DNA from: Gammaproteobacteria bacterium
Lineage (GTDB): Bacteria; Pseudomonadota; Gammaproteobacteria; Eutrophobiales; Eutrophobiaceae
Direction: 5' to 3'
DNA length: 64,000 bases
Assembly (NCBI GenBank): GCA_965202915.1
Contig: OZ241847.1
Coordinates: 1,665,972 to 1,729,971, forward strand
Part shown: piece by piece, positions 1,125 through 56,165 of the stretch
Position numbering within the stretch: the first letter of the stretch is position 1
Layout of the letters: the number at the start of each line of letters is the position of its first letter
Notes under the pieces: generated by a model
The model's database searches: none
What the model was told of the DNA's origin: nothing
Seen by the model: the letters and a program-made list of their open reading frames with translations, nothing else
Position numbers and translations under genes: made by a program

Positions 1125-2132
1125 GTGCTTGTGACGTTGGATTTGGGTGGCAACGCCTTCACCACGCTACCCGCCGGTGTCTTTGACGGCCTGTCGGCGC
1201 TTGAGGATTTGCGTTTGAATGACAGCGCCTTCACCACTCTGCCCGCTGATGTCTTTGACGGCCTGTCGGCGCTTGAGACCTTGGATTTGATTAGAAACGA
1301 CTTCACCACTCTGCCCGACGGCGTGTTTGACGACGTGCTGGACACCTTGGGCGCCATAGGCGAAGACTCGATCGCGAGCTTCCGTGTTGACGACACCGTC
1401 CGCAACGCCCATTTTGTCTGCTCGCGGGCGGACGCCGATGCCATTGTAGCCGCCACCGCCGGTGTGACCGACTGCCTGCGGATCACCACCGCGCAACTCG
1501 TCGCCGCTCTCTCGAATGCCGGCCTGAGTACGCTGACGATTTCCCAAGGCACACTGACGCCGGTGTTTGATCCCGCCACCTTCACTTACAGTGCCATGGT
1601 GCCCAATACCGTGACCACCCTCACCCTCACCCCCACGGCCGCCGGCAGTGGCGCAACCGTAGCCGTGACAGTGAACGCGGGAGCGGCGATCCCCAACCTC
1701 CCATTCACCGCCGCCCTCAACGTCGGCGCCAACGACATAGCAATCGTCGTTACCGCCGCGAACCCCATCACGCAGACCTACAGACTGACCGTAACCCGCG
1801 CCCTTCCGCTGGACCTGAATCAAGACCAGACCGTCAACGCCCAGGATGCCCAGATCCTGTATTATCTCTCGCTGACGCCCCGGCCCGACAACCTGCTGAA
1901 CACACTGCTGGGGAACGCCGAAAATATTGCCGCACTGGAGGCCGGAGCCGATGCCCTGGCGGGCGCAAACCGGTTCGACCTGGTCGGTAATGATGGCCTG
2001 AACCAGAATGACTGGCGGCTGCTGTACTATGCCCTGCGGTTTGAGGATGAGCTGAGTGCCAGCCCGGCACTGCAAGATGCGCTGGGGGTGACGGAGGCGA
2101 CTCTGCGTGCCGTGCGGTTGCTTATTGAATGA
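1125..2132 (+). CDS. Modular surface protein: leucine-rich repeats, a cadherin-like beta-sandwich and a C-terminal dockerin-like double repeat. Probably 5'-truncated.
   Basis: LRR-type repeats (FTTLPxGVFDGLSALExL) run from residue 1, and the repeat frame stays open upstream to a stop at 1095 without a convincing start. The mid region (GTLTPVFDPATFTYSAMVPNTVTTLTLTPTA...IAIVVTAANPITQTYRLTVTR) matches the Cadherin-like (PF12733) pattern. The C-terminus carries two D-x-N-x-D...LYY dockerin-like segments that are homologous to the N-terminus of the 36091..39123 protein. Confidence 0.55.
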   Translation: MLVTLDLGGNAFTTLPAGVFDGLSALEDLRLNDSAFTTLPADVFDGLSALETLDLIRNDFTTLPDGVFDDVLDTLGAIGEDSIASFRVDDTVRNAHFVCSRADADAIVAATAGVTDCLRITTAQLVAALSNAGLSTLTISQGTLTPVFDPATFTYSAMVPNTVTTLTLTPTAAGSGATVAVTVNAGAAIPNLPFTAALNVGANDIAIVVTAANPITQTYRLTVTRALPLDLNQDQTVNAQDAQILYYLSLTPRPDNLLNTLLGNAENIAALEAGADALAGANRFDLVGNDGLNQNDWRLLYYALRFEDELSASPALQDALGVTEATLRAVRLLIE

Positions 2133-2800
2133 CAGGAGTCGGGGTCTCCCGACCCCGATAAAACACACAATCGGCACGCCGGATTCTCTGTACAGGAGTC
2201 GGGGTCTCCCGACCCCGATAAAACACACAATCGGCACGCCGGATTCCCTGTACAGGATGACGGGTTTTCAACCCGTAGGCGGGTTTGGAAACCCACCCTC
2301 CTGTTTAAAACACACAATCGGCACGCCGGATTCTCTGTACAGGAGGACGGGTTTCCAAACCCGTCATAAATCATTCAACTTTTAATGTGTTTTTTTTTAT
2401 AGGAGTCGGGGTCTCCCGACCCCGATAAAACACACACTCGGCACGCCGGATTCTCTGTACAGGAGGACGGGTTTTCAACCCGTAGGCGGGTTTGGAAACC
2501 CACCCTCCTGTTTAAAACACACACCCGGCACGCCGGATTCCCTGAGCAACCGGGGTTTTCCAATCCGTCTTAAATCATTCAACTTTTAATGTGTTTTTTT
2601 TTAGGCGGGTTTGGAAACCCACCCTCCTGTTTAAAACACACACCCGGCGCGTCGGATTCTCTGAGCGACCGGTATTTCTGGACTGCATCGGGGCTTTTAA
2701 ATATAATGAAACAAGAGGTGGACGGGTTTTCAAATCCGTCTTTAATCATTCAACTTTTAATGTGTTTTTTTTAGGCGGGTTTGGAAACCCACCCTCCTGT
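2133..2800. repeat. Mosaic hairpin-repeat array (BIME/REP-like) in the intergenic region upstream of tkt.
   Basis: Six copies of a ~40-bp core (taaaacacacaNNcggcRcgYcggattcYctg). Each is flanked by short hairpin modules (caggag+tcggggtc-tccc-gaccccga; gacgggttttcaacccgt; gggtttggaaaccc) in both orientations. A 38-bp module (aaatcattcaacttttaatgtgttttttttt) occurs three times. Confidence 0.85.
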
Positions 2801-7147: not shown

Positions 7148-8173
7148 ATGACGATACGACAACAACTGCAGGAGACGGCGGCGGCGCTGGTTGCCCGGGG
7201 CAAGGGCATACTCGCGATAGACGAAAGCACGCCCACGATAAAGAAACGGTTTGATGCCATCGACGTCGAATCCACCGAGCAAAATCGCAGGAGCTATCGG
7301 GATCTGCTGATCACCAACCACGGCGACGCCGAATATATCAGCGGCATGATTCTGTATGACGAAACCATCCGCCAGGCCGCCGCCGACGGCACGCCCTTCC
7401 CACGGGTATTGATGAACAAAAACATTATGCCCGGCATTAAAGTCGACAAGGGCGCAAAAGAGCTGGCCCTGCACCCGGATGAAAAGGTAACCGAAGGACT
7501 GGATGGACTGGCCGACCGATTGGCCGAATACAACGCCCTCGGCGCGAAATTTGCCAAATGGCGCGCGGTGATCACGATAGGGGACAAGCTCCCCAGCCCG
7601 GCCTGCATAGACGCCAACGCCCATGCACTCGCCCGTTACGCCGGCCTGTGCCAGGCGGCCGGGCTGGTGCCGATAGTGGAACCGGAGGTATTGATGGACG
7701 CCGACCATACCATCGAGTGCTGTTACGAGGTGACCGCAAAAACCCTGTCGACCCTGTTTAATACGTTGCGTGGCCAGGGGGTCAGCATTGAACACACCCT
7801 GTTAAAAACCAATATGGTGATCGCCGGCAAACAATGTTCAAAGCAGGCCGGCGTCGACGAGGTGGCCGCGCAAACGGTGCGCTGTTTACGGCAAAACGTA
7901 CCGGCCGAGTTGCCGGGCATCGTGTTTCTTTCCGGCGGCCAGACCGCGGTACTTGCGACCGCCCACCTTAATGCAATGAACGCCGCCCATTCCGATCTGC
8001 CCTGGCCGTTGAGTTTTTCTTATGGCCGCGCATTGCAGGAGCCCTGCTTAAAGGTCTGGGGCGGCGACGCGGCAAATATTGCGGCGGCCCAAAAGGCATT
8101 ATTGCATCGTGAGCGATGCAACAGCCTGGCCTGTCTGGGGAAATATACGGAGGACGTGGAGCAGGCGGCCTGA
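7148..8173 (+). CDS. fba: Fructose-bisphosphate aldolase, class I.
   Basis: 341 aa. GKGILAIDES, the Schiff-base lysine context and the overall length are typical of class I FBA. Confidence 0.85.
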   Translation: MTIRQQLQETAAALVARGKGILAIDESTPTIKKRFDAIDVESTEQNRRSYRDLLITNHGDAEYISGMILYDETIRQAAADGTPFPRVLMNKNIMPGIKVDKGAKELALHPDEKVTEGLDGLADRLAEYNALGAKFAKWRAVITIGDKLPSPACIDANAHALARYAGLCQAAGLVPIVEPEVLMDADHTIECCYEVTAKTLSTLFNTLRGQGVSIEHTLLKTNMVIAGKQCSKQAGVDEVAAQTVRCLRQNVPAELPGIVFLSGGQTAVLATAHLNAMNAAHSDLPWPLSFSYGRALQEPCLKVWGGDAANIAAAQKALLHRERCNSLACLGKYTEDVEQAA

Positions 8174-8228
8174 TGCGCTTGTAGTGTACAAACTCTCCGG
8201 CGTTGGCCTATAATACAGGCTGTTTCAG

Positions 8229-8957
8229 ATGCTGAACAGGGGCAAAATAATGAGCAAACGCGGGGCTTACGGCGTGAACGAGGCCGTCGATTATAATGCG
8301 ATAAGCAGTGTTTGGACCGGCACGGATGCCGCGCTGCTTACGGAAATGCTGGATTTCTATCCGGTCATCGACACCGAGCCGATCCTGGATGCCACCTATA
8401 ACACGGGCCGCATGTGGCGGGGAACGGGCCGTAACCCTGTGTCCATGGACATCGACCCGCGGTACGCCCCCGATATTGTGGCGGACAACCGCGTTATGGC
8501 GGGCGTCCGGGACAATTCCTACGCAGTCGTGGTGTACGATCCGCCGCACGTCGGGCCGCAGGGCCGAGATAAGAGCAAAAAGCGCTTCGATGTGGACTTC
8601 GGCGCGACCATGGCTTGCGGAAAGGAGCACGGATGGAGCCTGAGCTACCTGTATCCGCCGTTCCTGGAGCAGGCCAGGCGCGTCCTCAAGCCGGATGGCA
8701 TTCTGCTCGCCAAGATCACCGACATTGTGAACAACCATCGCCAGCGCTGGGCGCACTGCGACTTCATAGCGATGGCCGGGAATGCCGGGTTCGTGGTCTG
8801 CGATCTGATTGTGAAAGTGCGAAAAGGGCCGATGAAGTCCACCAAATGGAAAAATGCTCAGCATGCCCGCAAGCGTCATTGTTTCTGGATCGTATGCCGC
8901 AACGGGCCATACAGCGAACGCAGGCTGAGTACCGGGGCCGATGTTGCGGTCGTATAA
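8229..8957 (+). CDS. Putative DNA amino-methyltransferase (N6-adenine/N4-cytosine type, DPPH variant of the DPPY motif).
   Basis: 242 aa. VVVYDPPH (motif IV-like) is preceded by a Gly-rich motif I-like segment. Its end overlaps the downstream GIY-YIG nuclease gene by 17 bp, as in R-M operons. Confidence 0.5.
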   Translation: MLNRGKIMSKRGAYGVNEAVDYNAISSVWTGTDAALLTEMLDFYPVIDTEPILDATYNTGRMWRGTGRNPVSMDIDPRYAPDIVADNRVMAGVRDNSYAVVVYDPPHVGPQGRDKSKKRFDVDFGATMACGKEHGWSLSYLYPPFLEQARRVLKPDGILLAKITDIVNNHRQRWAHCDFIAMAGNAGFVVCDLIVKVRKGPMKSTKWKNAQHARKRHCFWIVCRNGPYSERRLSTGADVAVV

Positions 8958-9474
8958 CCCACTCAGCATCGATGAACTGGGCCGGAACGCCGTGCGTGCC
9001 CTGATGGCCTACGACGTCGCCGAACTGCCACCCGGCGATCCGTTCCAGGGCGCAGGCGTCTATACGATCCACTACGCTGGGTCGTTTGCGCCATATGCAG
9101 GACTGGGTGAGACGCCGATCTATGTCGGCAGGGCAGACAATGACCTGCATGGCCGGCTGTCGGAGCACGCAGCGTCCATTGAAGCCGCAGAGAATCTGCG
9201 CCGCGATGAGTTCGGCTGCCGCTGGCTCGTGCTCGAACCGATCTGGATCAATCTGACCGAGAAAATCCTGATCGACCGGTACCGCCCCATCTGGAACAAG
9301 GTGCTGATAGGGTTCGGCATCCATGATCCGGGCGGTGGACGGCGCAATCAGCGTCGCTCCCAATGGGACACCGTGCATCCGGGAAGATCATGGTCGGCAA
9401 AGCAGCGCGAACCAGAGGAACCAGCCGGGCAACTGCTGGAACGAATCACACAGCATCGACGGCAAGAGCAATGA
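8941..9474 (+). CDS. GIY-YIG family nuclease, candidate type II restriction endonuclease (Eco29kI-like).
   Basis: 177 aa. GVYTIHY...PIYVGRADNDLHGRLSEH followed by conserved E and N residues gives the GIY-YIG catalytic pattern (Y, Y, R, H, E, N). It is translationally coupled to the upstream MTase. Confidence 0.5.
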   Translation: MLRSYNPLSIDELGRNAVRALMAYDVAELPPGDPFQGAGVYTIHYAGSFAPYAGLGETPIYVGRADNDLHGRLSEHAASIEAAENLRRDEFGCRWLVLEPIWINLTEKILIDRYRPIWNKVLIGFGIHDPGGGRRNQRRSQWDTVHPGRSWSAKQREPEEPAGQLLERITQHRRQEQ

Positions 9475-9593
9475 CGAAATAAGGACGGATCACAGGACAA
9501 AATTGACGCTGTTGCGCGAAAAGAATGGCCGTGCAGTGGCAACCGATGAATGCAACCGCTTGACTGTATTGCGCAACATGCTACACTTCATTT

Positions 9594-9866
9594 ATGATCA
9601 AGTCCTTCAAGCACAGAGGCCTGGAGATGTTTTACGAAAGTGGCAGTGTTAGAGGAATTCAGGCGAAGCACGCCGACAGACTGAGAATGCGACTGGCGGC
9701 CCCGGATACCGCTCAATCCATCGATGACATCGATATTCCAGGGTATCGATTGCATCCGTTGACGGGTGAGCGAACAGGTGGCTGGTCGATCACTGTAAAT
9801 GCAAACTGGCGCCTTTGAATTTAAAGAAGGAAATGTATATATATTAAATTACGAGGATTATCACTA
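9594..9866 (+). pseudogene. higB: HigB (RelE/ParE-superfamily) toxin interrupted by a +1 frameshift near 9813-9816.
   Basis: Frame 0 gives MIKSFKHRGLEMFYESGSVRGIQAKHADRLRMRL...GWSITVNANWRL then a stop at 9816-9818. The +1 frame continues FEFKEGNVYILNYEDYH and stops at TAA 9865-9867, overlapping the higA ATG (TAATG). Both parts match the canonical HigB (PF05015) N- and C-termini. Confidence 0.8.
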
Positions 9867-10689: not shown

Positions 10690-11598
10690 ATGACCAGATA
10701 TTTGCACTTTTGGGGCGTGCGAGGTTCTTATGCCGCCCCGTTTGCAACCCATTTGAAGGTGGGGGGGAATACGTCTTGCGTGGAAATCAACGTCGATGGT
10801 CATTGTCTGATCTGCGACGCCGGTACCGGCATCATCCCTTTTGGGGAGGAGGCGATGACTAAAAACCAAACCAAAGAGCTGTTGGTTGTCCTGACCCATT
10901 ATCATTGGGATCATATCTGTGGCCTGCCTTTTTTTGTGCCGGCCTTTACCCCGGAATGGAAAATCCGGTTTTTTGGTCCCGGTGAAACGGAGGCGGAGAT
11001 ACGGCAAAATATCGGTTCCCAGATGCAGGCGCCTTATTTCCCGGTGGGCACTGAGACCTGGGCGGCGAATATCTCCTATATCGATCCGGCAATAACGCAT
11101 ATACCATACGGCCCGTTTTCAATTTCGAGATACGGGGTGCATCACCCCGGATTAACCTATGGTTACCGAATTGATACCGGTGGCAAATCGATAGTCTATG
11201 TTTCCGACAATGAGTGTCAGTTTTTTGATAAGTCGATAAAACGCGATTGGCCCAAATTCAGTGAAGAAGAGAAGGCGATGTTCCAGGAAATGAATCGGGA
11301 AGAATATGAAATTGAACTGCGCGGGGTCCGGGAGGCGGATATTTTAATCCATGACGCGCAGTATTCTCCCGAAGATTACCAGACGAAACGGGGCTGGGGT
11401 CATTCCTGTTATACCGACGTGGTCAACATGGCCATAGACGCCGGGGTGAAATCACTCTATATGTATCATCATGATCCAAACCATAATGATGATGAGATCG
11501 AAGCCTTCCATGAGGAAAGTTTGAAAATCATTCAGCAAAGAGGGGCTTCGTTACAATGTCACGTCGCCAGAGAAGGTCTGATCGTTCCTCTTGATTAA
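10690..11598 (+). CDS. MBL-fold metallo-hydrolase.
   Basis: 302 aa with the HxHxDH motif (LTHYHWDHICGLPFF) and downstream His/Asp ligands. Confidence 0.75.
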   Translation: MTRYLHFWGVRGSYAAPFATHLKVGGNTSCVEINVDGHCLICDAGTGIIPFGEEAMTKNQTKELLVVLTHYHWDHICGLPFFVPAFTPEWKIRFFGPGETEAEIRQNIGSQMQAPYFPVGTETWAANISYIDPAITHIPYGPFSISRYGVHHPGLTYGYRIDTGGKSIVYVSDNECQFFDKSIKRDWPKFSEEEKAMFQEMNREEYEIELRGVREADILIHDAQYSPEDYQTKRGWGHSCYTDVVNMAIDAGVKSLYMYHHDPNHNDDEIEAFHEESLKIIQQRGASLQCHVAREGLIVPLD

Positions 11599-11842: not shown

Positions 11843-12640
11843 ATGAATACTCATACCCCCGCTGATCAACCACTGATTATTGCGAACGAGCGGTATCATT
11901 CACGTCTGCTGGTCGGCACCGGCAAGTATAAAGACGCGCGGGAAATGGACGCGGCCATTGCGGCAAGCGGCGCGCAGATCGTCACCATCGCAATCCGACG
12001 CATGAATATCGGACGAGACAAAGGCCAAACGGATCTGCTGGACCTGATCTCGCCGGATCAATACACGCTTTTACCGAACACGGCCGGCTGTTATGACGCC
12101 GAGTCGGCAATCCGTACCTGCCGGCTGGCGAGGGAATTACTCGATGGCCACACACTTATAAAACTGGAAGTCCTTGGCGATGAGAAAACGCTTTATCCCC
12201 ACCTGCCACAAACACTGAAGGCCGCGGAGCAGTTGATCAAGGATAATTTTGACGTTATGGTTTATACCACCGACGACCCGGTCATGGCGCGCGAATTTGA
12301 ACAGCTTGGTTGCGTTGCAGTGATGCCGCTGGCCGCACCCATCGGTTCCGGTCTGGGGATACGCAACCGCTATAATATACGCACCATCGTTGAAAATGCG
12401 TCCGTTCCAATTCTGGTGGACGCCGGCGTCGGCACCGCCTCTGACGCCGCTATCGCGATGGAGCTCGGCTGCGACGGGGTATTAATGAACACCGCCATTG
12501 CCGAGGCAAAGCAGCCGGTTTTAATGGCGGCGGCAATGAAAAAGGCAATGGCGGCCGGTCGGGAAGCCTATCTTGCCGGAAGAATGCCGCGCCGCGCCTA
12601 TGCCAGCGCGTCCTCTCCGATAGACGGCACTTTCTTTTAG
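11843..12640 (+). CDS. thiG: Thiazole synthase ThiG.
   Basis: [36 protein letters not shown] matches the ThiG N-terminus. An ATG at 11843 is chosen as the start (the ORF is open from 11819). Confidence 0.9.
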
Positions 12641-33085: not shown

Positions 33086-33426
33086 ACGGCGGTTGCGTCG
33101 GAAGACGACCCTTGCCAGGCGGTGAATCTGCACATCCTATGACCACTTGCACACCGCCTATAACCACGAACATCGTAAAGCACGGCACAAAGGCGTATAT
33201 GAATGGAATGGCTCACACAAACGGCATTGAGAGTGTCTGGGCGATGCTGAAAAGAGGGATTTACGGCACCTATCACCATGTCAGCAAAAAGCACCTTAAC
33301 CGCTATATTGACGAGTTCATATTCCATTTGAATGAGGGAAACGTCAATGTCTTGCTGGTAAGCCGTATCGCTTCGTTGAGTTGTATGAGCGCAGGCATGC
33401 CCTATAAGCCACTGCTCAGGGGATGA
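33082..33426 (+). mobile_element. IS1595-family (ISXO2-like) transposase C-terminal remnant.
   Basis: ...HTNGIESVWAMLKRGIYGTYHHVSKKHLNRYIDEFIFHLNEGNV... matches the C-terminal DDE-region tail of IS1595-family transposases. The N-terminal ~250 aa are absent, and the fragment abuts the parC stop codon. Confidence 0.65.
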
Positions 33427-34343
33427 GCACAATGCCAAGTCTCAATGCTATTGCGGCTAGTTGTTCAAAGTCCATATTCCAGTCACGCATTATCACCGGC
33501 GATGTTCTGAAAACACTGAAAAACCAGCCCTTTAATCTGAAGTTTGATGTAGTAATTGCCGACCCGCCGTATAACATTGGCAAGGATTTTGGGAACAACA
33601 ACGATAGCCTACCTATTGACGATTATGTCGACTGGTGCAACCAATGGCTAGAGCAATGCTTTCGCCTGTTGACCGATAATGGATTGGTCTATGTGTACGG
33701 GTTCCACGAGGTTTTAGCGCGTATTGCAGTAAATTATCCGGTGGATGAGCAACGCTGGCTGGCGTGGCATTACACTAACAAAGCAGTGCCATCCTCAAAG
33801 TTCTGGCAACGATCCCACGAGGCAATCCTGTGCCTGTGGAAACCGGGGACCAAGCGGCCAATATTGGAAATTGACCAAATCCGAGAACCATACACACCCA
33901 ATTTCCTCAAATGTGCTGGCAGGGAGAGAAACGACACAAAGGGCAGGTACAGCAAAAAAGGAAAAAAGACAATTTACAACGACAACGGCGGCGCACTTCC
34001 TCGTGATGTAATTGATATACCTGCATTAGCTGGCGGTGCTGGTCGGGTGGAGCGGTGGTTTTCATGCCGGGAATGTGGCGGAGAGGTGAGGCCGCCTAGT
34101 GAATTGGCAAATCATGCTGGCCACAGCATACTCAAACATCCTACTCAAAAACCAATGGAGTTGACTAGGCGGCTGATATTGTCCCGAATCAACGGCCGGC
34201 AGGGCCGCACCTTGATACCCTTCACAGGGTCAGGCTCCGAGTGTGTAGTTGCAAAATCGCTTGGAGTCGAGTTTCTTGGCATTGAAATCAATCCTGAATA
34301 CGCTAAATTCGGGCGCAGTTGGTTAAAGCAATGTACCACTTGA
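33423..34343 (+). CDS. Site-specific DNA methyltransferase (N4/N6 amino-MTase, beta class).
   Basis: 306 aa. DPPY (VVIADPPYNIG) lies upstream of motif I (IPFTGSGSECVVA). The HPTQKP motif and a Cys-rich insert are present. Confidence 0.85.
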   Translation: MSTMPSLNAIAASCSKSIFQSRIITGDVLKTLKNQPFNLKFDVVIADPPYNIGKDFGNNNDSLPIDDYVDWCNQWLEQCFRLLTDNGLVYVYGFHEVLARIAVNYPVDEQRWLAWHYTNKAVPSSKFWQRSHEAILCLWKPGTKRPILEIDQIREPYTPNFLKCAGRERNDTKGRYSKKGKKTIYNDNGGALPRDVIDIPALAGGAGRVERWFSCRECGGEVRPPSELANHAGHSILKHPTQKPMELTRRLILSRINGRQGRTLIPFTGSGSECVVAKSLGVEFLGIEINPEYAKFGRSWLKQCTT

Positions 34344-34921
34344 CTCCGCGAATGACGCAACGGCTCAAAGCGGACCTGGCCAAATACCACGATCTGTTCA
34401 CAGGAAAACGATGCGAGAGTTGGGAATTGGAAGAGTTGATTGTTGCAGCAATCAAATCAGACACGCAGGCACAGCATCATGTTCGTTGGCAGGAAAAGGG
34501 GCATGATGATCTCGCCGATATTGTCGTGCGGACGAATGGATCACAGCATTCAATTCAAATCAAATCCGGGCAGATAAAAGCAGGCAAGTTGATATTGTCT
34601 GGCCACAGATTGGGCCGATTCAATGGCGTAATGGATGATATTGGCGCATACCTCAATACGCCGAGAGCAAATATCATGGCGGTTCCGCACAGATTGATAG
34701 ATGATAGCAAAGGGCGCCAGCATATTTATCGCGTATGCTATGTGGATATTAAGATAATGACTGGCCTTGAGACCAATAAATGGGAAAAGCGGGGCGCGCA
34801 ATATGTCCAAACAAACGCGGGAGGTGTAGAGTTCTCTTTGCGGCCGTCTATGAGTTGGCAAATCTGGTGGGCTATACCCGTAAGCCTAATTGAACAAACC
34901 GATGAGTTTGTTATCGGCTAG
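34319..34921 (+). CDS. Putative type II restriction endonuclease (PD-(D/E)XK-like), cognate to the upstream MTase.
   Basis: 200 aa overlapping the MTase by 25 bp. A candidate catalytic core HDDLADIVVR...SIQIKSG (D...D...QxK) is present. The assignment rests mainly on context. Confidence 0.45.
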   Translation: MVKAMYHLTPRMTQRLKADLAKYHDLFTGKRCESWELEELIVAAIKSDTQAQHHVRWQEKGHDDLADIVVRTNGSQHSIQIKSGQIKAGKLILSGHRLGRFNGVMDDIGAYLNTPRANIMAVPHRLIDDSKGRQHIYRVCYVDIKIMTGLETNKWEKRGAQYVQTNAGGVEFSLRPSMSWQIWWAIPVSLIEQTDEFVIG

Positions 34922-34991
34922 TTTGTTTATTTCAGGGTATAATTCCCTAATATAGCCTCTTTTCCAGCCCATCTATATTTTAAAGAAAAAA

Positions 34992-35554
34992 ATGACGACC
35001 TTCAGCACCAATCAATTCAAACCCGGCTTAAAGCTGATGATAGACGGCGAGCCGTGCTCGATTATTGAAACCGAATTTATTAAATCCGGCAAGAGACAGG
35101 CGTTCAACCGGGTGAAATTGCGCAACCTGAAAAATGGCCGGGTACTGGAAAAAACCTGGAATTCGGGTGACAGTGTCGCCGCCGCGGACGTGATGGAACT
35201 GGATATGCAGTATCGGACGGCGGTCTGTGGCATTTTATGGATCCAGATTCATATGAACAATACGCCGCCACCGCAACCGTGATGACCGACGTCAGTCCCT
35301 GGCTGAAAGGCGGCGAAGTATGCCTGGTCACACTCTGGAATGACTCACTTTTATCCGTGCTGCCGCCGAATTTCGTGATGCTGGCAATAGCCGAAACCGA
35401 TCCGGGGCTGGTGGGAGATACCGTATCATCCGGCACAAAGCCGGCAAAATTGGAAACCGGCGCGATGATAAAAGTGCCGCTGTTTATTGACACCGGTGAA
35501 ATTGTCAAAATAGACACCCGCACCGGTGAATACGTTGGCCGCAGCAAATCCTAG
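34992..35554 (+). CDS. efp: Elongation factor P. Its frame is interrupted by an apparent 1-nt deletion near 35211-35216 (ORFs 34992..35282 and 35237..35554).
   Basis: The N-terminal part [46 protein letters not shown]...MQY and, in the -1 frame, [16 protein letters not shown]...[27 protein letters not shown] align collinearly with E. coli EF-P. The junction is TAT-CGG versus an expected TATTCG. Confidence 0.85.
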
Positions 35555-35741: not shown

Positions 35742-36032
35742 ATGGGCAGCAAGGCAAAATTCAAGGGCGGCTTATTGCGCCCGGTATCGCTGACGACCGG
35801 GTTGCCGGTGCTCGGTGCCTTTGGCAGCAACCGGATTTACCGCAGCACTGAGCAAACCGACGCCGAGATCGACCCCGGAGCCGGGCTTATTTTGTCGCCG
35901 GACGCAACGACTGGATTGCCGGGGCAAGTTGAGGCGCTTATCCTGTCGGCAAACCCGGCCTCTGGTCCGCTGAGTTTTACCCCCCCCCCCCCCCCTCAAT
36001 CCCAAGCCAGGCCTAGCGTCACAGGCATATAG
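35742..36032 (+). CDS. 5' segment (96 codons) of the FG-GAP repeat protein gene, terminated by a frame shift at the poly-C tract.
   Basis: A good promoter and RBS sit upstream. The ORF runs into the C16 tract (coding TPPPPP) and stops 36 nt later. The downstream 1010-codon frame is open from 35974 through the same tract. Confidence 0.6.
   Translation: MGSKAKFKGGLLRPVSLTTGLPVLGAFGSNRIYRSTEQTDAEIDPGAGLILSPDATTGLPGQVEALILSANPASGPLSFTPPPPPQSQARPSVTGI
35980..35995 (+). repeat. Homopolymeric poly-C tract (16 nt) inside the coding region, a candidate slipped-strand phase-variation switch.
   Basis: C16 read directly from the sequence. C15 or C18 would fuse 35742..36032 with 36091..39123 into one ~1,126-codon ORF. 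Confidence 0.9.
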
Positions 36033-36090
36033 CCCCTCCGGGCACCTGGCCCTGTCCGCCAGTCTGCCGTACCTGCCGGCCGCGCAGTCG

Positions 36091-39000
36091 GTGGCACCAC
36101 CACCGCCGGTGACCCCGGCAAACCCGTTACCCCCGGCGTCCGCGCTTATCGACCAACAATCGCAGGCCTTTGAGCCGCTTGCACTGCACGCCACCGCAAC
36201 CGGGCCACAGCGGCCCGAAGTCGCATTTCAGACCGGCGCTGTATCCCTGGTCTCTCTGAACCTGAACCAACAGCAGGGTATAGAGGCGCAAGACGCACAA
36301 ATACTGTATTACGTCGCCCTGTCGCCGGCCAATTTGACGACCCTGCTGGACAATCTGAGGGGAACCGACGCCGAGGCGGATCTTATAACCCGTGCGAATG
36401 CCTGGCTGAACCAGGACCTGGGCCTGAGCACCCTGCCCGATCTGAACAATGACAATATCCTGAACCAGGAGGATGCACGCATCCTGTACTATGCCTATCG
36501 GTTTGGCGATCTGCTGCGCGTCAGTCCCAGCCTGCGCGAGGCAATACTGGGCGATCTGACCGACGAAGACGATAGTGCCGCCAATCCGGATGACGTATAT
36601 CGGGAGATACTGGACCGGACTGGGTTATTCAGGCCGTCGGTGATCGACCTGACCAGCCTTGGTGAGGCCGACGGCTTTATTATCCAGGGCGATGCGGCCA
36701 GGGACGGGGCGGGCGTGAGCGTATCCACTGTCGGCGACGTCAACGGCGACGGCTATGCCGATGTAATCGTCGGGGCGCGCGGTGGCGACGACGGTGGCAG
36801 GAATGCCGGCGAGGCCTACGTGGTATTTGGCAGGGCGGGCGCCTTTGGCAGCCTGGACGGCACCAACCGCCGGGTGATCGACCTGACCAGCCTTAGCGAG
36901 GCGGACGGTTTTATCATCCAGGGCTTGGGAGGCGACCAGGTGGGCGAGGGCATATCCGGCGCCGGCGACGTCAACGGCGACGGCTATGCCGACCTGATTG
37001 TTGGGGCGCACCTGGGTGACGACGGTGGCAGGAATGCCGGCGAGGCCTACGTGGTGTTTGGTAAGGCGGGCTTCTTTGGCAGCCTGGACGGCACCGACCG
37101 CCGGGTGATCGACCTGACCAGCCTTAGCGAGACGGACGGCTTTATTATCCAGGGCGACGCGGTCGGGGACCGTGCAGGCGAGCGCGTATCCGGCGCCGGG
37201 GACGTGAATGGCGACGGCTTTGCCGATCTGATCGTCGGGGCGCAGTCGGCCAACGACGGTGGTACCGATGCCGGCGAGGCCTACGTGGTGTTCGGCAGGG
37301 CGGGCCCCTTTGGCAGCTTGGACGGCACCAGCCGCCGGGTGATCGACCTGACCCGCCTTAGCGAGACGGACGGCTTTATTATCCAGGGCGACGCGGTCGG
37401 GGACCGTGCGGGCTGGAGCGTATCCGGCGCCGGGGACGTGAACGGTGACGGCTATGCCGACCTGATCGTCGGGGCGCTCTATGGCGACGACGGCGGGGAA
37501 AATGCCGGCGAGGCCTATGTCGTGTTCGGCAGAGCATCCGGCTTTGGCAGTGACGTCACCACCACAGTGGATGGGGAAGGCAGCTTCATCCGCCGGGTGA
37601 TCGACCTGACTGGTCTGAGCGAAGCCGATGGCTTTATCATCCAGGGCGATGAGGCCGGTGCCTATGCGGGCAATAGAGTTGGTGATACTGCGGGCTTTAG
37701 CGTATCCGGCGCCGGGGACGTGAACGGCGACGGCTATGCCGACCTGATTGTCGGGGCACGCCGGGGTGACGACGGTGACGACGTTGACGTCAATGCCGGC
37801 GAGGCCTACGTGGTGTTAGGCAAGGCGGGCGGCTTTGGTATTGACGTCACCACCACAGTTGAGAGGGAAGGCAGCTTCACCCGCCGGGTGATCGACCTGA
37901 CGAGCCTGGCCGCGGAGGACGGCTTTATCATCCAGGGCGATATGGCTGGGGACAATGCGGGCTTTAGCGTATCCACTGCCGGGGACTTCAACGGCGACGG
38001 CTTTGCCGACCTGATCGTCGGGGCACTTGGGGGCGACGACGGTGGGGAAAATGCCGGCGAGGCCTACGTGGTGTTCGGCAAGGCGGGCGGTTTTGGTATT
38101 GACGTCACCACCACAGTTGAGGGGGAAGGCAGCTTCACCCGCCGGGTGGTCGACCTGGATGGCCTGGTTGCAACGGACGGCTTTATTATCCAGGGTGATG
38201 CGCCTGGCGACTATGCGGGCTATAGCGTATCCGCTGCCGGCGATATAAACGGCGACGGCTATGCCGACCTGATCGTCGGAGCAATCAGGGGCGACGACGG
38301 TGACGACAGTGACATCAATGCCGGCGAGGCCTACGTGCTGTTCGGCGGCCTGGCCGCCGGCCTAAGTTCCGAGGCCACCGTATTACTCGGCACCGGCGGC
38401 AACGACGACCTCAACGTCGACGGCCGTGCCACGGTTGTACTCGCCGGCGCCGGCGATGACGTGCTGACCGTGGACGGCTTCACCAATACCGATCTGCTCA
38501 AATTCGATGGCGGCACCGGCACCGATACCCTGCGCTTCGCCAACCCCGACGCAGACACCGGCCTGAGCCTGGATTTAAGCACCCTCGCCGACACCCGCCT
38601 GAGCAGCATAGAGCGCATAGACCTCAGTGGCAGCGGCGACAATAGGCTAACCCTGATCCGTCTGGACCTGTTGAACCTGTCCGAGGCGCGCACTAATGGC
38701 CGCGCCGAGCTACGGGTCGACGGCAACGCCGGCGACCGCGTCAGCGCCACCGATACCGGCTGGACGCAGCAGGCTGATATCATCACCGACGACGGCATGT
38801 ACAGGGTCTTTGACAACGGCAATGCCCGCCTGCTGGTCAATATGGAGGTGGCGCTGGGCGACAATTTAATGGCGGCCAGCATGGCCAGCCGGGATGAGCT
38901 CCTGCAAAGCTGTTGCGGCACGCAGACCGTCGATATCCGCGCATTGCTGCAGGCCCTGCCGCCGCCGGACGAAGAGCAACAGCGCAGGATCATGGAAGAT

Positions 39001-39123
39001 GAATTGGCGATGTTGGGGCCGTCACCGGAGGCAAAGGCGGCGATGATGCCTGATGAACCCACGGCGGCACCGGAGACCGACCTGTTCGACCTGCCGCCGC
39101 TCATCCCGGATGATGGCATGTAG
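36091..39123 (+). CDS. Large FG-GAP (integrin-alpha-like beta-propeller) repeat protein with an N-terminal Pro-rich linker plus a dockerin-like module and a C-terminal Gly/Asp-rich region loosely reminiscent of RTX repeats. It is probably the distal part of the phase-variable gene starting at 35742.
   Basis: About 10 tandem ~72-aa repeats (RRVIDLTSLSEADGFIIQGD...GDVNGDGYADLIVGA...DGG.NAGEAYVVFG.AG.FG) match the FG-GAP consensus. The N-terminus carries a dockerin-like pair (LNLNQQQGIEAQDAQILYY..., DLNNDNILNQEDARILYYAYRF). The C-terminus has GGNDDLNVDG...AGAGDDVLTVDG...FDGGTGTDTLRF. Confidence 0.8.
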   Translation: MAPPPPVTPANPLPPASALIDQQSQAFEPLALHATATGPQRPEVAFQTGAVSLVSLNLNQQQGIEAQDAQILYYVALSPANLTTLLDNLRGTDAEADLITRANAWLNQDLGLSTLPDLNNDNILNQEDARILYYAYRFGDLLRVSPSLREAILGDLTDEDDSAANPDDVYREILDRTGLFRPSVIDLTSLGEADGFIIQGDAARDGAGVSVSTVGDVNGDGYADVIVGARGGDDGGRNAGEAYVVFGRAGAFGSLDGTNRRVIDLTSLSEADGFIIQGLGGDQVGEGISGAGDVNGDGYADLIVGAHLGDDGGRNAGEAYVVFGKAGFFGSLDGTDRRVIDLTSLSETDGFIIQGDAVGDRAGERVSGAGDVNGDGFADLIVGAQSANDGGTDAGEAYVVFGRAGPFGSLDGTSRRVIDLTRLSETDGFIIQGDAVGDRAGWSVSGAGDVNGDGYADLIVGALYGDDGGENAGEAYVVFGRASGFGSDVTTTVDGEGSFIRRVIDLTGLSEADGFIIQGDEAGAYAGNRVGDTAGFSVSGAGDVNGDGYADLIVGARRGDDGDDVDVNAGEAYVVLGKAGGFGIDVTTTVEREGSFTRRVIDLTSLAAEDGFIIQGDMAGDNAGFSVSTAGDFNGDGFADLIVGALGGDDGGENAGEAYVVFGKAGGFGIDVTTTVEGEGSFTRRVVDLDGLVATDGFIIQGDAPGDYAGYSVSAAGDINGDGYADLIVGAIRGDDGDDSDINAGEAYVLFGGLAAGLSSEATVLLGTGGNDDLNVDGRATVVLAGAGDDVLTVDGFTNTDLLKFDGGTGTDTLRFANPDADTGLSLDLSTLADTRLSSIERIDLSGSGDNRLTLIRLDLLNLSEARTNGRAELRVDGNAGDRVSATDTGWTQQADIITDDGMYRVFDNGNARLLVNMEVALGDNLMAASMASRDELLQSCCGTQTVDIRALLQALPPPDEEQQRRIMEDELAMLGPSPEAKAAMMPDEPTAAPETDLFDLPPLIPDDGM

Positions 39124-39131
39124 CCACCACC

Positions 39132-39424
39132 GGAGCCCGTGACTCCCGTCGCGGGTAAAACAACCCCCCCTGACAAGGGGGCAGGGGGGGTTCCCCCAAC
39201 ACCGGCACCTTACCCCAATCACCCCGGATTCCCAAACTGCACCGAGTCTTTGCCGAACAACACCAAACCACCCCAATTAACACCAAACCCCCCAACCCCC
39301 CTTGTCAGGGGGGCTACTGAGCGACACCGGCACCTTTCCCCCAACCAACACCGTGAGCGGGGCTGAGTTGCGGGTTGACGATAATGTTGATTGTTATATA
39401 CCCGCGACGGGAGTCACGGGCTCC
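39132..39424. mobile_element. MITE-like element copy A (293 bp) with 26-bp perfect terminal inverted repeats.
   Basis: ggagcccgtgactcccgtcgcgggta ... tacccgcgacgggagtcacgggctcc. The interior shares ~200 bp with copy B and carries C/G homopolymer hairpins. It begins 9 bp after the stop codon of the FG-GAP gene. Confidence 0.8.
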
Positions 39425-39580
39425 TGTGATGAGCGGTGCAGGCCTCTGCTGAACAATTTCATTTGATAACGGCGGGGCGTGGGTCTATACTGACTATATG
39501 AAAGATACGAGCATACCGGTAACACCCTGTGGCAAGTGGATGATAACTGTCGTCCCGTATAAATTATCCGGTACCTGAAT

Positions 39581-40027
39581 ATGGAAGCCATCGCATTTGA
39601 TACCCATAAATTTGTCAAGCACCTGACTGCATCGGGTTTCACCGAAGCGCAGGCGGAAGCCCTGGCCGGTGAGCAGGTCGATATGATTAACAGCAATCTG
39701 GCCACCAAGGCCGACATAGAGAAACTGCGCCTGGCCACCAAGGCCGACATAGAGAAACTGCGCCTGGCCACCAAGGCGGACATAGAGCAACTGCGCGCGG
39801 ACACCAGGGCGGACATTGCCGAGGTGAAGGCGGACATAGAGAAACTGCGCCTGGCCACCCAGGAGGACATAGAGAAACTGCGCCTGGCGACCCAGGCGAA
39901 CATAGAGCAACTGCGCGCGGACACCAGGGCGGACATTGCCAATACCGAATCAAGACTGACGCGCTGGATCGTTGGTGCGATGATTGCGCAGATCGGCGTG
40001 GTTGTCGGGTTGATTAAATTGAGTTGA
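39581..40027 (+). CDS. DUF1640-like coiled-coil protein with a C-terminal transmembrane helix and internal 11-aa tandem repeats.
   Basis: 148 aa. The N-terminus MEAIAFDTHKFVKHLTASGFTEAQAEALAG is followed by (LATKADIEKLR)n encoded by 33-nt tandem repeats (~39697-39950) and a C-terminal hydrophobic WIVGAMIAQIGVVVGLI. Confidence 0.6.
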   Translation: MEAIAFDTHKFVKHLTASGFTEAQAEALAGEQVDMINSNLATKADIEKLRLATKADIEKLRLATKADIEQLRADTRADIAEVKADIEKLRLATQEDIEKLRLATQANIEQLRADTRADIANTESRLTRWIVGAMIAQIGVVVGLIKLS

Positions 40028-40029
40028 CA

Positions 40030-40292
40030 GGAGCCCGTGACTCCCGTCGCGGGTAAAACCCACACCCAGCACGCCGGATTCCCCAACCCCCCCGGATTCC
40101 CAAACTGCACCGAGTCTTTGCCGAACAACACCAAACCACCCCAATTAACACCAAACCCCCCAACCCCCCTTGTCAGGGGGGCTACTGAGCGACGCCGGCA
40201 CCTTTCCCCCAACCAACACTGTGAGTCGTGCTGAGTTGCGGGTTGACGATAATGTTGATTGTTATATACCCGCGACGGGAGTCACGGGCTCC
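40030..40292. mobile_element. MITE-like element copy B (263 bp), same family and orientation as copy A.
   Basis: Identical TIRs. Its 5' module (caggag+hairpin+taaaacccacacccagcacgccggattcc) is homologous to the core unit of the 2133..2800 array. Confidence 0.8.
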
Positions 40293-40411
40293 TGTAACTA
40301 TAAGGCAACCGCCGGACAAAACCCGCCAGGCCGGATCTGCCGGGATCAAACAATATCTATTATGCTCGGCCTGCTTTACAATGTAAGCGATATGAACGGA
40401 ATGAGCCTGCA

Positions 40412-54498: not shown

Positions 54499-55398
54499 TT
54501 ACTGCTCTAAAACATCTTTCAACGTATCAATCTGCTGCTGATAGATTTCCGGCCTATCCCGCCTGAATTGCTCTAAGTTCGAGAGTTTCCATTTTACCGA
54601 TGGAAATTCCTGAAAATCATAAATCGACCAATCTGGCTCTAAACCATTAAGGCTTAGTAAAAACGCTCTATCATTTTCATTTAAACTCGTCTTTACCGTT
54701 TCGATTAATTGCAGTCTTGTGGCCTCATATTCATCGTAACTAAACTCAATCACGTTCATGCCTTCAAACTGATTTTCAAACGCCGTTCGCTGATCGATCA
54801 AATGAGGAACAAGCATTTCATGGGTCGGGCGATTACTGCTCACCAGACCCAAAATGAAGCCTTGCTTGATCTCATCGGTAAAGCCTTCATTATCCAGTAA
54901 CAGCTTTACATCAAATAAATCTCGTGGATGTTGCCTGTCCAGGGCAGCACATAACTTGCCACCATATAATTGCGCCAAGGGTACAAGCGGCATCGCACAA
55001 AACGCATCAAATTCCTCTTGAGCGGCTTCGCAAAGTGGCTTCTTATTGGAGTCACCCAGCAGGCCTCGCCCTACCATGTTTACTTCTATCTTGATGAGTA
55101 CACCGTGCTCATCCAGTTGTAATTTGCAAACCTTCTCTTTGTGTTGAACGCGTATTGACGAGCGCAACCCTTCGATACGATCTTTAATGCGAACAAGCGC
55201 CGCATTAATCCCATCAAGCGTTTCATTACGTTCAGCAATCTCGACATAGGTTAAATCGATATCAACCGACAGCCTTGGCATATCGCGCATAAAGAGATTG
55301 ATCGCCGTGCCGCCATGCATGGCAAAACATGCTTCTTTAGCTACTTCTGGCAACACATCCAAAAGCAGCCTGACCTGTTTTTTGCAGGCGTCATTCAT
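54499..55398 (-). CDS. AbiEii/AbiGii-family nucleotidyltransferase toxin (type IV TA / abortive infection).
   Basis: 299 aa. The N-terminal MHGGTAINLFMRDMPRLSVDIDLTY matches the DUF1814/AbiEii motif. Confidence 0.8.
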   Translation of the reverse strand: MNDACKKQVRLLLDVLPEVAKEACFAMHGGTAINLFMRDMPRLSVDIDLTYVEIAERNETLDGINAALVRIKDRIEGLRSSIRVQHKEKVCKLQLDEHGVLIKIEVNMVGRGLLGDSNKKPLCEAAQEEFDAFCAMPLVPLAQLYGGKLCAALDRQHPRDLFDVKLLLDNEGFTDEIKQGFILGLVSSNRPTHEMLVPHLIDQRTAFENQFEGMNVIEFSYDEYEATRLQLIETVKTSLNENDRAFLLSLNGLEPDWSIYDFQEFPSVKWKLSNLEQFRRDRPEIYQQQIDTLKDVLEQ

Positions 55399-56165
55399 GC
55401 CGCCGCCTCTAATTCCCTGGGAACGGTTATCTGGTATTTCGAGACATAGACGCCATCGCTCACGATGGCACGTTTACCTGAGCCCAAATCAACCTTATCC
55501 AGATTGATATAACCAAGCCATTCATGGCCTGCCTTATCTGCCAAATACAAAAACAGGCGCTTCACTTTGATAGAGGTGCAGGCTTCAAGTAATTTTTGTA
55601 CTGTTGCCGGCCGCAAATTATTCAAGCCTTGCATCAGCTCAAACACCTCGACAAGCGGCTGAGACTTGGGTGCCAAATATAAACATTCCATTACTGCACG
55701 AGCAGAGCCGGATATCTGCACCTTAAAACTTTTATGATCGATCTCGACCAAACCAAGATCAGGCGGCAAAAAGCTCGTCAGCTTACACTCTACGCTCAAG
55801 CCCCAATCCCGCTTTTTAAACCAAAGCGGCAAGCTCTCATCCTTACCACCAAAAAGCTGTGCCCTCTTTGTAGAAAGCTCCAAATAGTGGGATTTCCCCT
55901 GCAATGACAGTGCTGTTTTGCCCGCCGGATGCACATAGAGGCCGAGCTGAGACTGCAAAGCATAGATGCCCCCCAAATAGTCCACTTGATCACCATGGCG
56001 TATCAGAGCACCCGTGCCGATAGAATCAAACCACTGGCTTTTCTTGTACTGTTTTTGCAGATCGAGGCTATAGCCCTGTTCTGTCAACCATGCGGAAGAG
56101 AGCACTATGCCCGAAGGCTGAGTGCTAAGCAGAGTGTTTAATTTTGACTCTCTCTCGGTATTCAT
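55395..56165 (-). CDS. AbiEi-family antitoxin/transcriptional regulator.
   Basis: 256 aa. The N-terminal winged-HTH pattern LLSTQPSGIVLSSAWLTEQGYS...YKKSQWFDSIGTGALI is typical of AbiEi. It overlaps AbiEii by 4 bp. Confidence 0.7.
   Translation of the reverse strand: MNTERESKLNTLLSTQPSGIVLSSAWLTEQGYSLDLQKQYKKSQWFDSIGTGALIRHGDQVDYLGGIYALQSQLGLYVHPAGKTALSLQGKSHYLELSTKRAQLFGGKDESLPLWFKKRDWGLSVECKLTSFLPPDLGLVEIDHKSFKVQISGSARAVMECLYLAPKSQPLVEVFELMQGLNNLRPATVQKLLEACTSIKVKRLFLYLADKAGHEWLGYINLDKVDLGSGKRAIVSDGVYVSKYQITVPRELEAAA

Follow-up and report, generated by a model that had tools for sequence, protein, structure and literature searches.

By analogy, and not by membership, the neisserial intergenic mosaic element (NIME) array fits best as the closest described counterpart of the repeats reported here. 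There, families of spacer repeats are set apart by 20-bp dRS3 hairpin repeats, and for these arrays a role in recombination, or as recombinase targets, has been proposed; its authors remarked that no arrays of this kind had been observed beyond Neisseria (PMC1797815). Repetitive extragenic palindromic (REP) sequences, bacterial interspersed mosaic elements (BIMEs) and REP doublets forming hairpins (REPINs) offer another comparison. The defining features of REPINs have been described, and in Pseudomonas fluorescens SBW25 their two sites are spaced by 34–110 nt and form no hybrid doublets (PMC3337134). Composites bounded by MITEs (miniature inverted-repeat transposable elements) also have a precedent (PMC13367494). 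Here, we analyzed a 64,000-nt stretch of contig OZ241847.1 from an uncultured gammaproteobacterium (hereafter, the window), in which two intergenic elements of 299 and 269 bp, each ending in inverted hairpin sites, flank a single gene of the CCDC90-like/DUF1640 family. We favor the view that these elements are units of a lineage-specific NIME/BIME-like intergenic mosaic repeat, which would act as recombination substrates and cassette boundaries, and we give this view about as much credence as doubt.

The initial annotation had described two MITE-like elements with identical 26-bp inverted ends, and both are present. The 26-mer GGAGCCCGTGACTCCCGTCGCGGGTA occurred in four exact copies in the window (39132+, 39399−, 40030+ and 40267−), none being expected from shuffled sequences, and the inverted ends extended beyond 26 nt to 29 nt (ACAGGAG...GGGTA). 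The elements, with refined limits, and their hairpin sites are listed below.

Element 1: 39129–39427, plus strand, 299 bp; left hairpin site, spacer modules and right hairpin site
Spacer modules of element 1: CCCCCCTGACAAGGGGG palindrome, ACACCGGCACCTT, GGATTCCCAAACTGCACCG and GCTGAGTT..TTGACGATAATGTTG
Left hairpin site of element 1: 39129–39157, plus strand; ACCGGAG CCCGTGAC TCCC GTCGCGGG TA; 46.4 bits
Right hairpin site of element 1: 39399–39427, minus strand; the left-site sequence inverted, with outer end ...CTCCTGT; 49.8 bits
Element 2: 40027–40295, plus strand, 269 bp; left hairpin site abutting the TGA, CAGCACGCCGGATTC module, 215-nt right part and right hairpin site
Left hairpin site of element 2: 40027–40055, plus strand; ACAGGAG CCCGTGAC TCCC GTCGCGGG TA; 52.5 bits
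Right hairpin site of element 2: 40267–40295, minus strand; 51.8 bits

The inverted ends were 100% matched in element 2 and 97% matched in element 1, which had a single mismatch at its left end (ACC for ACA). A 33-nt left end (97% identity) and the right 215 nt (97% identity, 7 mismatches) were common to both elements, in agreement with the approximately 200 bp of shared interior reported before; the left-central stretch differed (51 vs 21 nt). As also described initially, the elements lay in direct orientation and flanked exactly one open reading frame (ORF, 39581–40027). The A of the TGA stop codon of this gene was the first base of element 2. Upstream, the FG-GAP gene ended at 39123, and the previously noted distance of 9 bp holds for the GGAG of element 1, from 39132, but not for the refined element start at 39129. 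No credible ORF was found inside either element (269–299 bp), and each whole element folded through its ends as a single long hairpin (z = −8.9 and −6.7). The possibility, raised initially, that a single copy had been misassembled was rejected, because an independently assembled contig of sister strain L001 had an arrangement identical to that of the window, and the contig of a third strain (L008, 98.5% identical) opened within the right end of element 2.

Perfect 29-bp terminal inverted repeats, small size and lack of an ORF would suit classical MITEs moved by a DDE transposase, and two direct copies flanking one cargo gene, in a block found at several loci, would suit a composite bounded by two such copies, like TIME-COMPs or integron mobilization units. 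However, the target-site duplications that the initial annotation had proposed to look for were absent, both at single elements and at the whole block: neither element 1 nor element 2, nor the L010 copy at 10743–10926, the L011 copy or whole blocks had direct repeats of 2–10 bp at their ends, and a search of every complete copy gave no target-site duplication. The sequences bordering the block (GCCACC and AACTAT in the window, GCTGCT and AAAAAA in L011) had no target-site duplication in common. In addition, the left and right ends of many copies belonged to different stem classes, sites in the 211 kb analyzed occurred only in clusters, and half-units and tandem right ends were frequent. The only transposase remnants (IS1595 and ISL3 fragments) were not located beside the elements, their ends not having been systematically compared with the hairpin sites, and none of the sequences examined contained a transposase with matching ends. 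A DDE-type MITE or composite fits poorly because there was no duplication, the ends were unmatched, the sites were not dispersed within these 211 kb and no partner element was seen; we consider it quite unlikely. Of the earlier suggestion of MITE-like elements forming a composite element or a recombination cassette, the cassette half fits better than the MITE half.

Each element end is a hairpin site with an ACAGGAG head, an 8-bp stem, a TCC(C/T/A) loop and a TA(A/T)AA tail, and the head-and-tail pattern by itself recovered the same sites. The stems differed in sequence among sites, yet they stayed paired: in a set of 13 different variants of the site, taken from the window and related contigs and in part selected because they were paired, 96% of stem positions were paired and changes on both sides were found in seven of the eight stem pairs. 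The observed percentage of pairing, number of cells changed on both sides and covariation score were not reached in any of 500 shuffles, the count of pairs changed on both sides was reached in 14 of 500, and controls slid by 1–3 columns showed only 33–51% pairing. A T-G wobble was retained on the ACAGGAG strand. Left and right sites of one element were often of different stem classes (a U1-type left site with an M-type or B-type right site), and one right site was a chimera of two classes (TCGGGGAC-TCCC-GTTGCGGG). Half-units, tandem right ends and one hairpin-deleted end were also found among the copies.

We then used a covariance model of the hairpin site (R1) to analyze 211 kb, composed of the window and the fetched loci, some of which had been reached via DUF1640 paralogs. 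There were 46 matches at E≤1 and 40 at E<1e-5. All 46 fell in five clusters adjoining DUF1640 genes or giant surface-protein genes within these 211 kb, the source genome not having been scanned whole. The window contained 14 strong sites in two clusters (2130–2802 and 39127–40297) and none in the other 62 kb, and both clusters started just past the stop codon of a large gene for a surface-type protein, one with leucine-rich repeats (LRR) and one with FG-GAP repeats. No R1 sites were found in L004, L009, L013, L014, L015 or L017. The other cluster in the window had the following composition.

Second cluster of the same family: 2132–2800, plus strand; 10 strong hairpin sites and one weak model match
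Stem classes at 2132–2800: TCGGGGTC/GACCCCGA and GGTGGGTT/AACCCGCC, interleaved with CGGCACGCCGGATTC and AAATCATTCAACTTTTAATGTG modules

This array started right after the TGA of the LRR gene and ended upstream of tkt. It shared with the elements the design CAGGAG, 8-bp hairpin and TAAAAC, with different but complementary stems. Thus, the family link drawn in the initial annotation, which had joined the elements and the array as one dispersed family, is retained, but dispersal is not, as the sites in the 211 kb were confined to few clusters. Likewise, the 5′ module reported as shared has a common architecture, and the CGGCACGCCGGATTC module itself was present in element 2, with one mismatch, but absent from element 1. 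A derivation of the 3′ end of the LRR gene from that of DUF1640 was also considered and rejected: the local alignment score of 11 was reached by 183 of 2000 shuffles and equalled by other gene ends. Searches in other collections gave little. A scan with the 20-nt hairpin gave two chance matches with unrelated flanks in each of the genome and metagenome contig collections, the degenerate head-loop-tail pattern found nothing in viral contigs, blastn of element 1 found nothing in plasmids, and none of seven ORFs running through the elements was found by exact look-up in a protein collection.

One of the spacer modules, the 18-nt palindrome CCCCCCTTATCAGGGGGG, was observed in addition upstream of, and inside the 5′ part of, giant FG-GAP/cadherin ORFs, at these positions.

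L010: 12551–12707 and 14034
L011: 11223–11316 and 12685
L012: 2762–2855 and 4224

The architecture and distribution of the sites also bear on a REPIN-like origin. In this model, the site would be a REP and the element an inverted doublet, moved as a single-stranded hairpin by a Y1/HUH transposase encoded elsewhere, and DUF1640 would be carried between doublets. Consistent with it, the sites were imperfect GC-rich palindromes with a conserved 5′ head whose inverted pairs formed one long hairpin, they were extragenic and often started right past stop codons, no target duplications were present, and the spacers were less conserved than the ends. On the other hand, the head was ACAGGAG, whereas that of REPs is of the GTAG type. 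The spacing was 211–241 nt, beyond the range of SBW25, and hybrid doublets mixing stem classes, which do not occur in that strain, were common. Moreover, the sites in the 211 kb were tightly clustered instead of dispersed. No REP-associated tyrosine transposase (RAYT) was seen in the 211 kb, a weak point because RAYTs are single-copy. We regard a REPIN-like origin as unlikely.

The gene enclosed by the two elements, together with its leader, forms the rest of what we call the cassette.

Cassette leader: 39428–39580, plus strand; 35 nt common to element-flanked paralogs, promoter and 5′ untranslated region (UTR)
DUF1640/CCDC90-like gene: 39581–40027, plus strand; 148 aa, with 33-nt repeats and a C-terminal transmembrane helix

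The ORF matched Pfam family PF07798 (CCDC90-like/DUF1640) with E=4.4e-14. Its 33-nt tandem repeats (39698–39940, approximately 7 units with 84–93% identity) encode the 11-residue sequence LATKADIEKLR. This unit has the beta-layer motif, [aliphatic]-A-T-K-[polar]-[D/E], that is described in work on membrane proteins of the DUF1640 family (PMC4786415). Paralogs ranged from 111 to 281 aa through different numbers of repeats. The source genome has at least nine DUF1640 paralogs, namely the present gene and at least eight others (55–81% identity) on the 2.49-Mb source contig, and more were found on sister-strain contigs. The family also matched two PHROG families that have no assigned function. A strong sigma-70-like promoter, TTGATA-17-TATACT, was predicted at 39463–39491 and was present in every cassette examined.

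The same layout recurred elsewhere: an element ending in ...CTCCTGT, 35 conserved nt, the promoter, the 5′ UTR, the ORF, a TGA running directly into the CAGGAG hairpin, and the next element. The initial annotation had suggested a check of whether the unit of element, gene and element occurs elsewhere as a block, and it does, twice in tandem in L010, once in L011/L012 and two to three times in sister strain L016. In an alignment of four blocks, conservation ran from ...CTCCTGT into the downstream modules and took in the promoter, the ORF and the TGA-CAGGAG junction. The outer ends of the block were sharp at ACMGGAG and CTCCTGT, with no homology between loci past them, and such sharp ends without direct repeats were observed at four independent loci. 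In L015, a DUF1640 gene and a decayed tandem copy had the same promoter but no hairpin sites, which implies that the repeats are an add-on to the gene unit. In other genera, DUF1640 genes were arranged as ordinary segmental duplications (L013) or had no flanking repeats (L014).

Comparison of strains and relatives revealed that the arrays are variable. Upstream of tkt, L016 has three DUF1640-type genes (76, 162 and 281 aa) and 14 strong sites, and the window shows at this position the LRR gene and, behind it, 10 strong sites; the collinearity between the two (99.6%) begins inside the array, at window position 2602. The genes before the array differ as well: in the window, a phage virion-morphogenesis gene (Phage_tail_S, 358–867) and the LRR-repeat protein gene (900–2131) lie upstream of 2132, and asmA, mutY, yggX and DUF1640 cassettes occupy this side of the array in the sister strain. 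A strain-specific island therefore has its edge at the 2132 array. Elements within one locus were 97–98.5% identical to each other, compared with 78–88% between loci, except for a 48-nt core with 96–98% identity. The promoter and gene 5′ ends adjoining the elements were 90–94% identical. This pattern of identity points to local homogenization or recent local duplication. In L009, which was 92% identical across argC and the downstream genes, the whole 1.18-kb block was absent; L009 kept the argC leader and, of the FG-GAP gene, a 3′ remnant, and approximately 35–41 unrelated nt occupied the place where the block would be. The nearest other genus (L004, argC 71% identical) had groESL upstream of argC and no sites.

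A different possibility is that the hairpins serve the DUF1640 unit as cis-acting signals in RNA or DNA, such as 3′-end stabilizers, insulators or translation modulators, which were co-duplicated with the gene by segmental duplication, nothing being mobile by itself. Several properties would agree with this. The left hairpin was located 6 nt past the stop codon in six of the eight intact canonical DUF1640 copies examined, the covarying stem is consistent with selection on structure, the wobble is kept on the ACAGGAG strand, and a conserved promoter follows the right site. However, a 0.67-kb array of the same sites lies behind the unrelated LRR gene with no DUF1640, the block ends sharply at the sites and the loci share no flanking DNA, and the arrays differ between strains that are 99.6% identical. 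Furthermore, no Rfam family was matched (nothing at E≤1), and no terminator-type U-tract was present at the hairpins. We judge this explanation to be very unlikely.

The arrays also recall integrons. Co-oriented genes each have a structured, imperfect palindrome immediately behind them, array content differs between strains, and the inner boxes TAAAAC...GTTTTA contain AAC...GTT, so an integron-like cassette array lacking an integrase could be imagined, in which the element would be the attC site and the DUF1640 gene the cassette. By inspection, however, RYYYAAC/GTTRRRY is not matched by the boxes (G)TAAAAC ... GTT(A/T)T(A/T), and attC sites have nothing equivalent to the outer hairpins. The elements are 180–390 nt long, whereas attC sites measure 57–141 nt. 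A promoter is present in every cassette, the cassettes are all paralogs of one another, and no integrase gene was found in the window or its flanks. An integron origin thus appears extremely improbable.

We return to the mosaic hairpin repeat that we favor. Here, the unit would be an inverted pair of ~30-nt hairpin sites enclosing shuffled spacer modules. Two units and a promoter-bearing DUF1640 gene together make a 1.17-kb cassette belonging to a multicopy family, whose members were observed alone or as tandem arrays next to giant surface-protein genes. Cassettes may multiply, disappear and change place by recombination at the repeats or between them, and unequal crossing-over and gene conversion would explain the arrays and the similarity within loci. 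That new loci have sharp ends suggests a further step, acting specifically at the hairpin sites, which a putative enzyme probably carries out; cut-and-paste DDE transposition is probably not the mechanism. The hairpin 6 nt past the stop may have a further role in shaping the mRNA 3′ end. A more specific proposal is that the hairpin sites are targets of a dedicated, candidate structure-specific recombinase that would excise, insert and shuffle promoter-bearing DUF1640 cassettes beside phase-variable giant adhesin genes, an integron-/NIME-like system with a new type of site outside Neisseria and no known integrase. We view this proposal as rather improbable.

Several points weigh against the reading as a mosaic repeat. 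No recombinase or transposase was identified in the window or fetched loci, the source genome not having been scanned whole. The sharp ends would agree as well with true transposition in which the enzyme leaves no target duplication. L009 provides no clean empty site, as the FG-GAP gene is largely deleted there, and because of this deletion and the unrelated nucleotides in place of the block, insertion could not be distinguished from loss. The loci reached through DUF1640 paralogs are biased towards this gene, and selection of part of the sites for pairing makes the covariation count somewhat circular.

The genes adjoining the arrays encode giant LRR, FG-GAP and cadherin proteins. The one next to element 1, and the homopolymer tracts observed near the start of such genes, are as follows.

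FG-GAP repeat surface-protein gene: 36091–39123, plus strand; directly upstream of element 1, repeat clusters adjoining such genes
Homopolymer tract in the window: C16 at 35980–35995 (region 35742–39123)
Homopolymer tract in L010: G32 at 12462–12493
Homopolymer tract in L011: G18 at 11147–11164

In all three, the tract lies between an N-terminal ORF of 96–133 aa and the giant FG-GAP ORF, and removal of one base or addition of two would fuse the ORFs into proteins of 1126 aa (window), >2800 aa (L010) and >3200 aa (L011). Judged from sequence, the tract looks like a slipped-strand phase-variation switch in the OFF state, or else an assembly error in homopolymer length.

Additional features were noted elsewhere in the window. 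A second strain-variable island (8170–9833) contains an Eco29kI-type GIY-YIG restriction endonuclease gene (8941–9474), and L016 has DUF1652 and EcsC genes at the equivalent position. A 1.8-kb segment (33129–34944) absent from L001 includes a DNA methyltransferase-like ORF (33423–34343), in which a DPPY motif was recognized by eye, together with an ORF of 200 aa and an IS1595-type C-terminal fragment; in its place, L001 has 395 bp that contain a zinc-ribbon fragment of IS1595. The neighboring efp gene (34992–35554) is split into two ORFs in the window and is an intact 186-aa gene in L001. Relative to L001, it has a 9-bp insertion at 35018–35026 and a 7-bp deletion after 35214, indicating either a pseudogene or a sequence error. 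An AbiEii toxin/AbiEi antitoxin pair (54499–56165, minus strand) represents a type IV toxin-antitoxin or abortive-infection module.

If the mosaic-repeat reading is correct, an uncultured gammaproteobacterium would have independently evolved mosaic hairpin-repeat arrays of a kind regarded as a peculiarity of Neisseria. In this lineage they delimit a membrane coiled-coil gene that is multicopy and variable in length, adjoin giant adhesin-type genes with candidate homopolymer switches, and vary between strains that are otherwise 99.6–99.9% identical. The loci would be a natural place for studying short structured repeats as drivers of local amplification and exchange of genes, and the site motif could be used to search for the responsible enzyme. 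They also hold a warning for annotation: a gene surrounded by perfect inverted repeats does not necessarily indicate a MITE or composite transposon driven by a transposase.

Among known systems, MITE-bounded composites such as TIME-COMPs and the integron mobilization unit resemble the present block in that direct copies with inverted-repeat ends bracket a cargo and the block occurs at more than one locus. They differ in that the block has no target-site duplication, many copies have unmatched ends and no cognate transposase is known, and in that its cargo belongs to a chromosomal paralog family, whereas that of MITE-bounded composites is an accessory resistance gene. REPs, BIMEs and REPINs share with our sites the imperfect GC-rich palindromes with a conserved head, inverted doublets folding into one hairpin, mosaic clusters with linker motifs, an extragenic location near stop codons and the lack of target duplication; the different head, longer spacers (211–241 nt), common hybrids, clustering and a gene enclosed between units set the present family apart. 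The likeness to NIMEs extends to hairpin-type inverted repeats of about 20 nt, with conserved and variable parts, that flank 20–240-bp families of spacer repeats, to clustered arrays whose number of units varies between strains (here, the tkt array of the window and L016), and to a position beside variable surface-protein genes, some of them phase-variable via homopolymer tracts. However, dRS3 (ATTCCC-N8-GGGAAT) is unrelated in sequence and has conserved arms and a variable center, whereas the sites described here have variable stems and a conserved loop and flanks; no phage or recombinase is known to use them, their arrays enclose a dedicated multicopy DUF1640 gene, and their host is an uncultured gammaproteobacterium.

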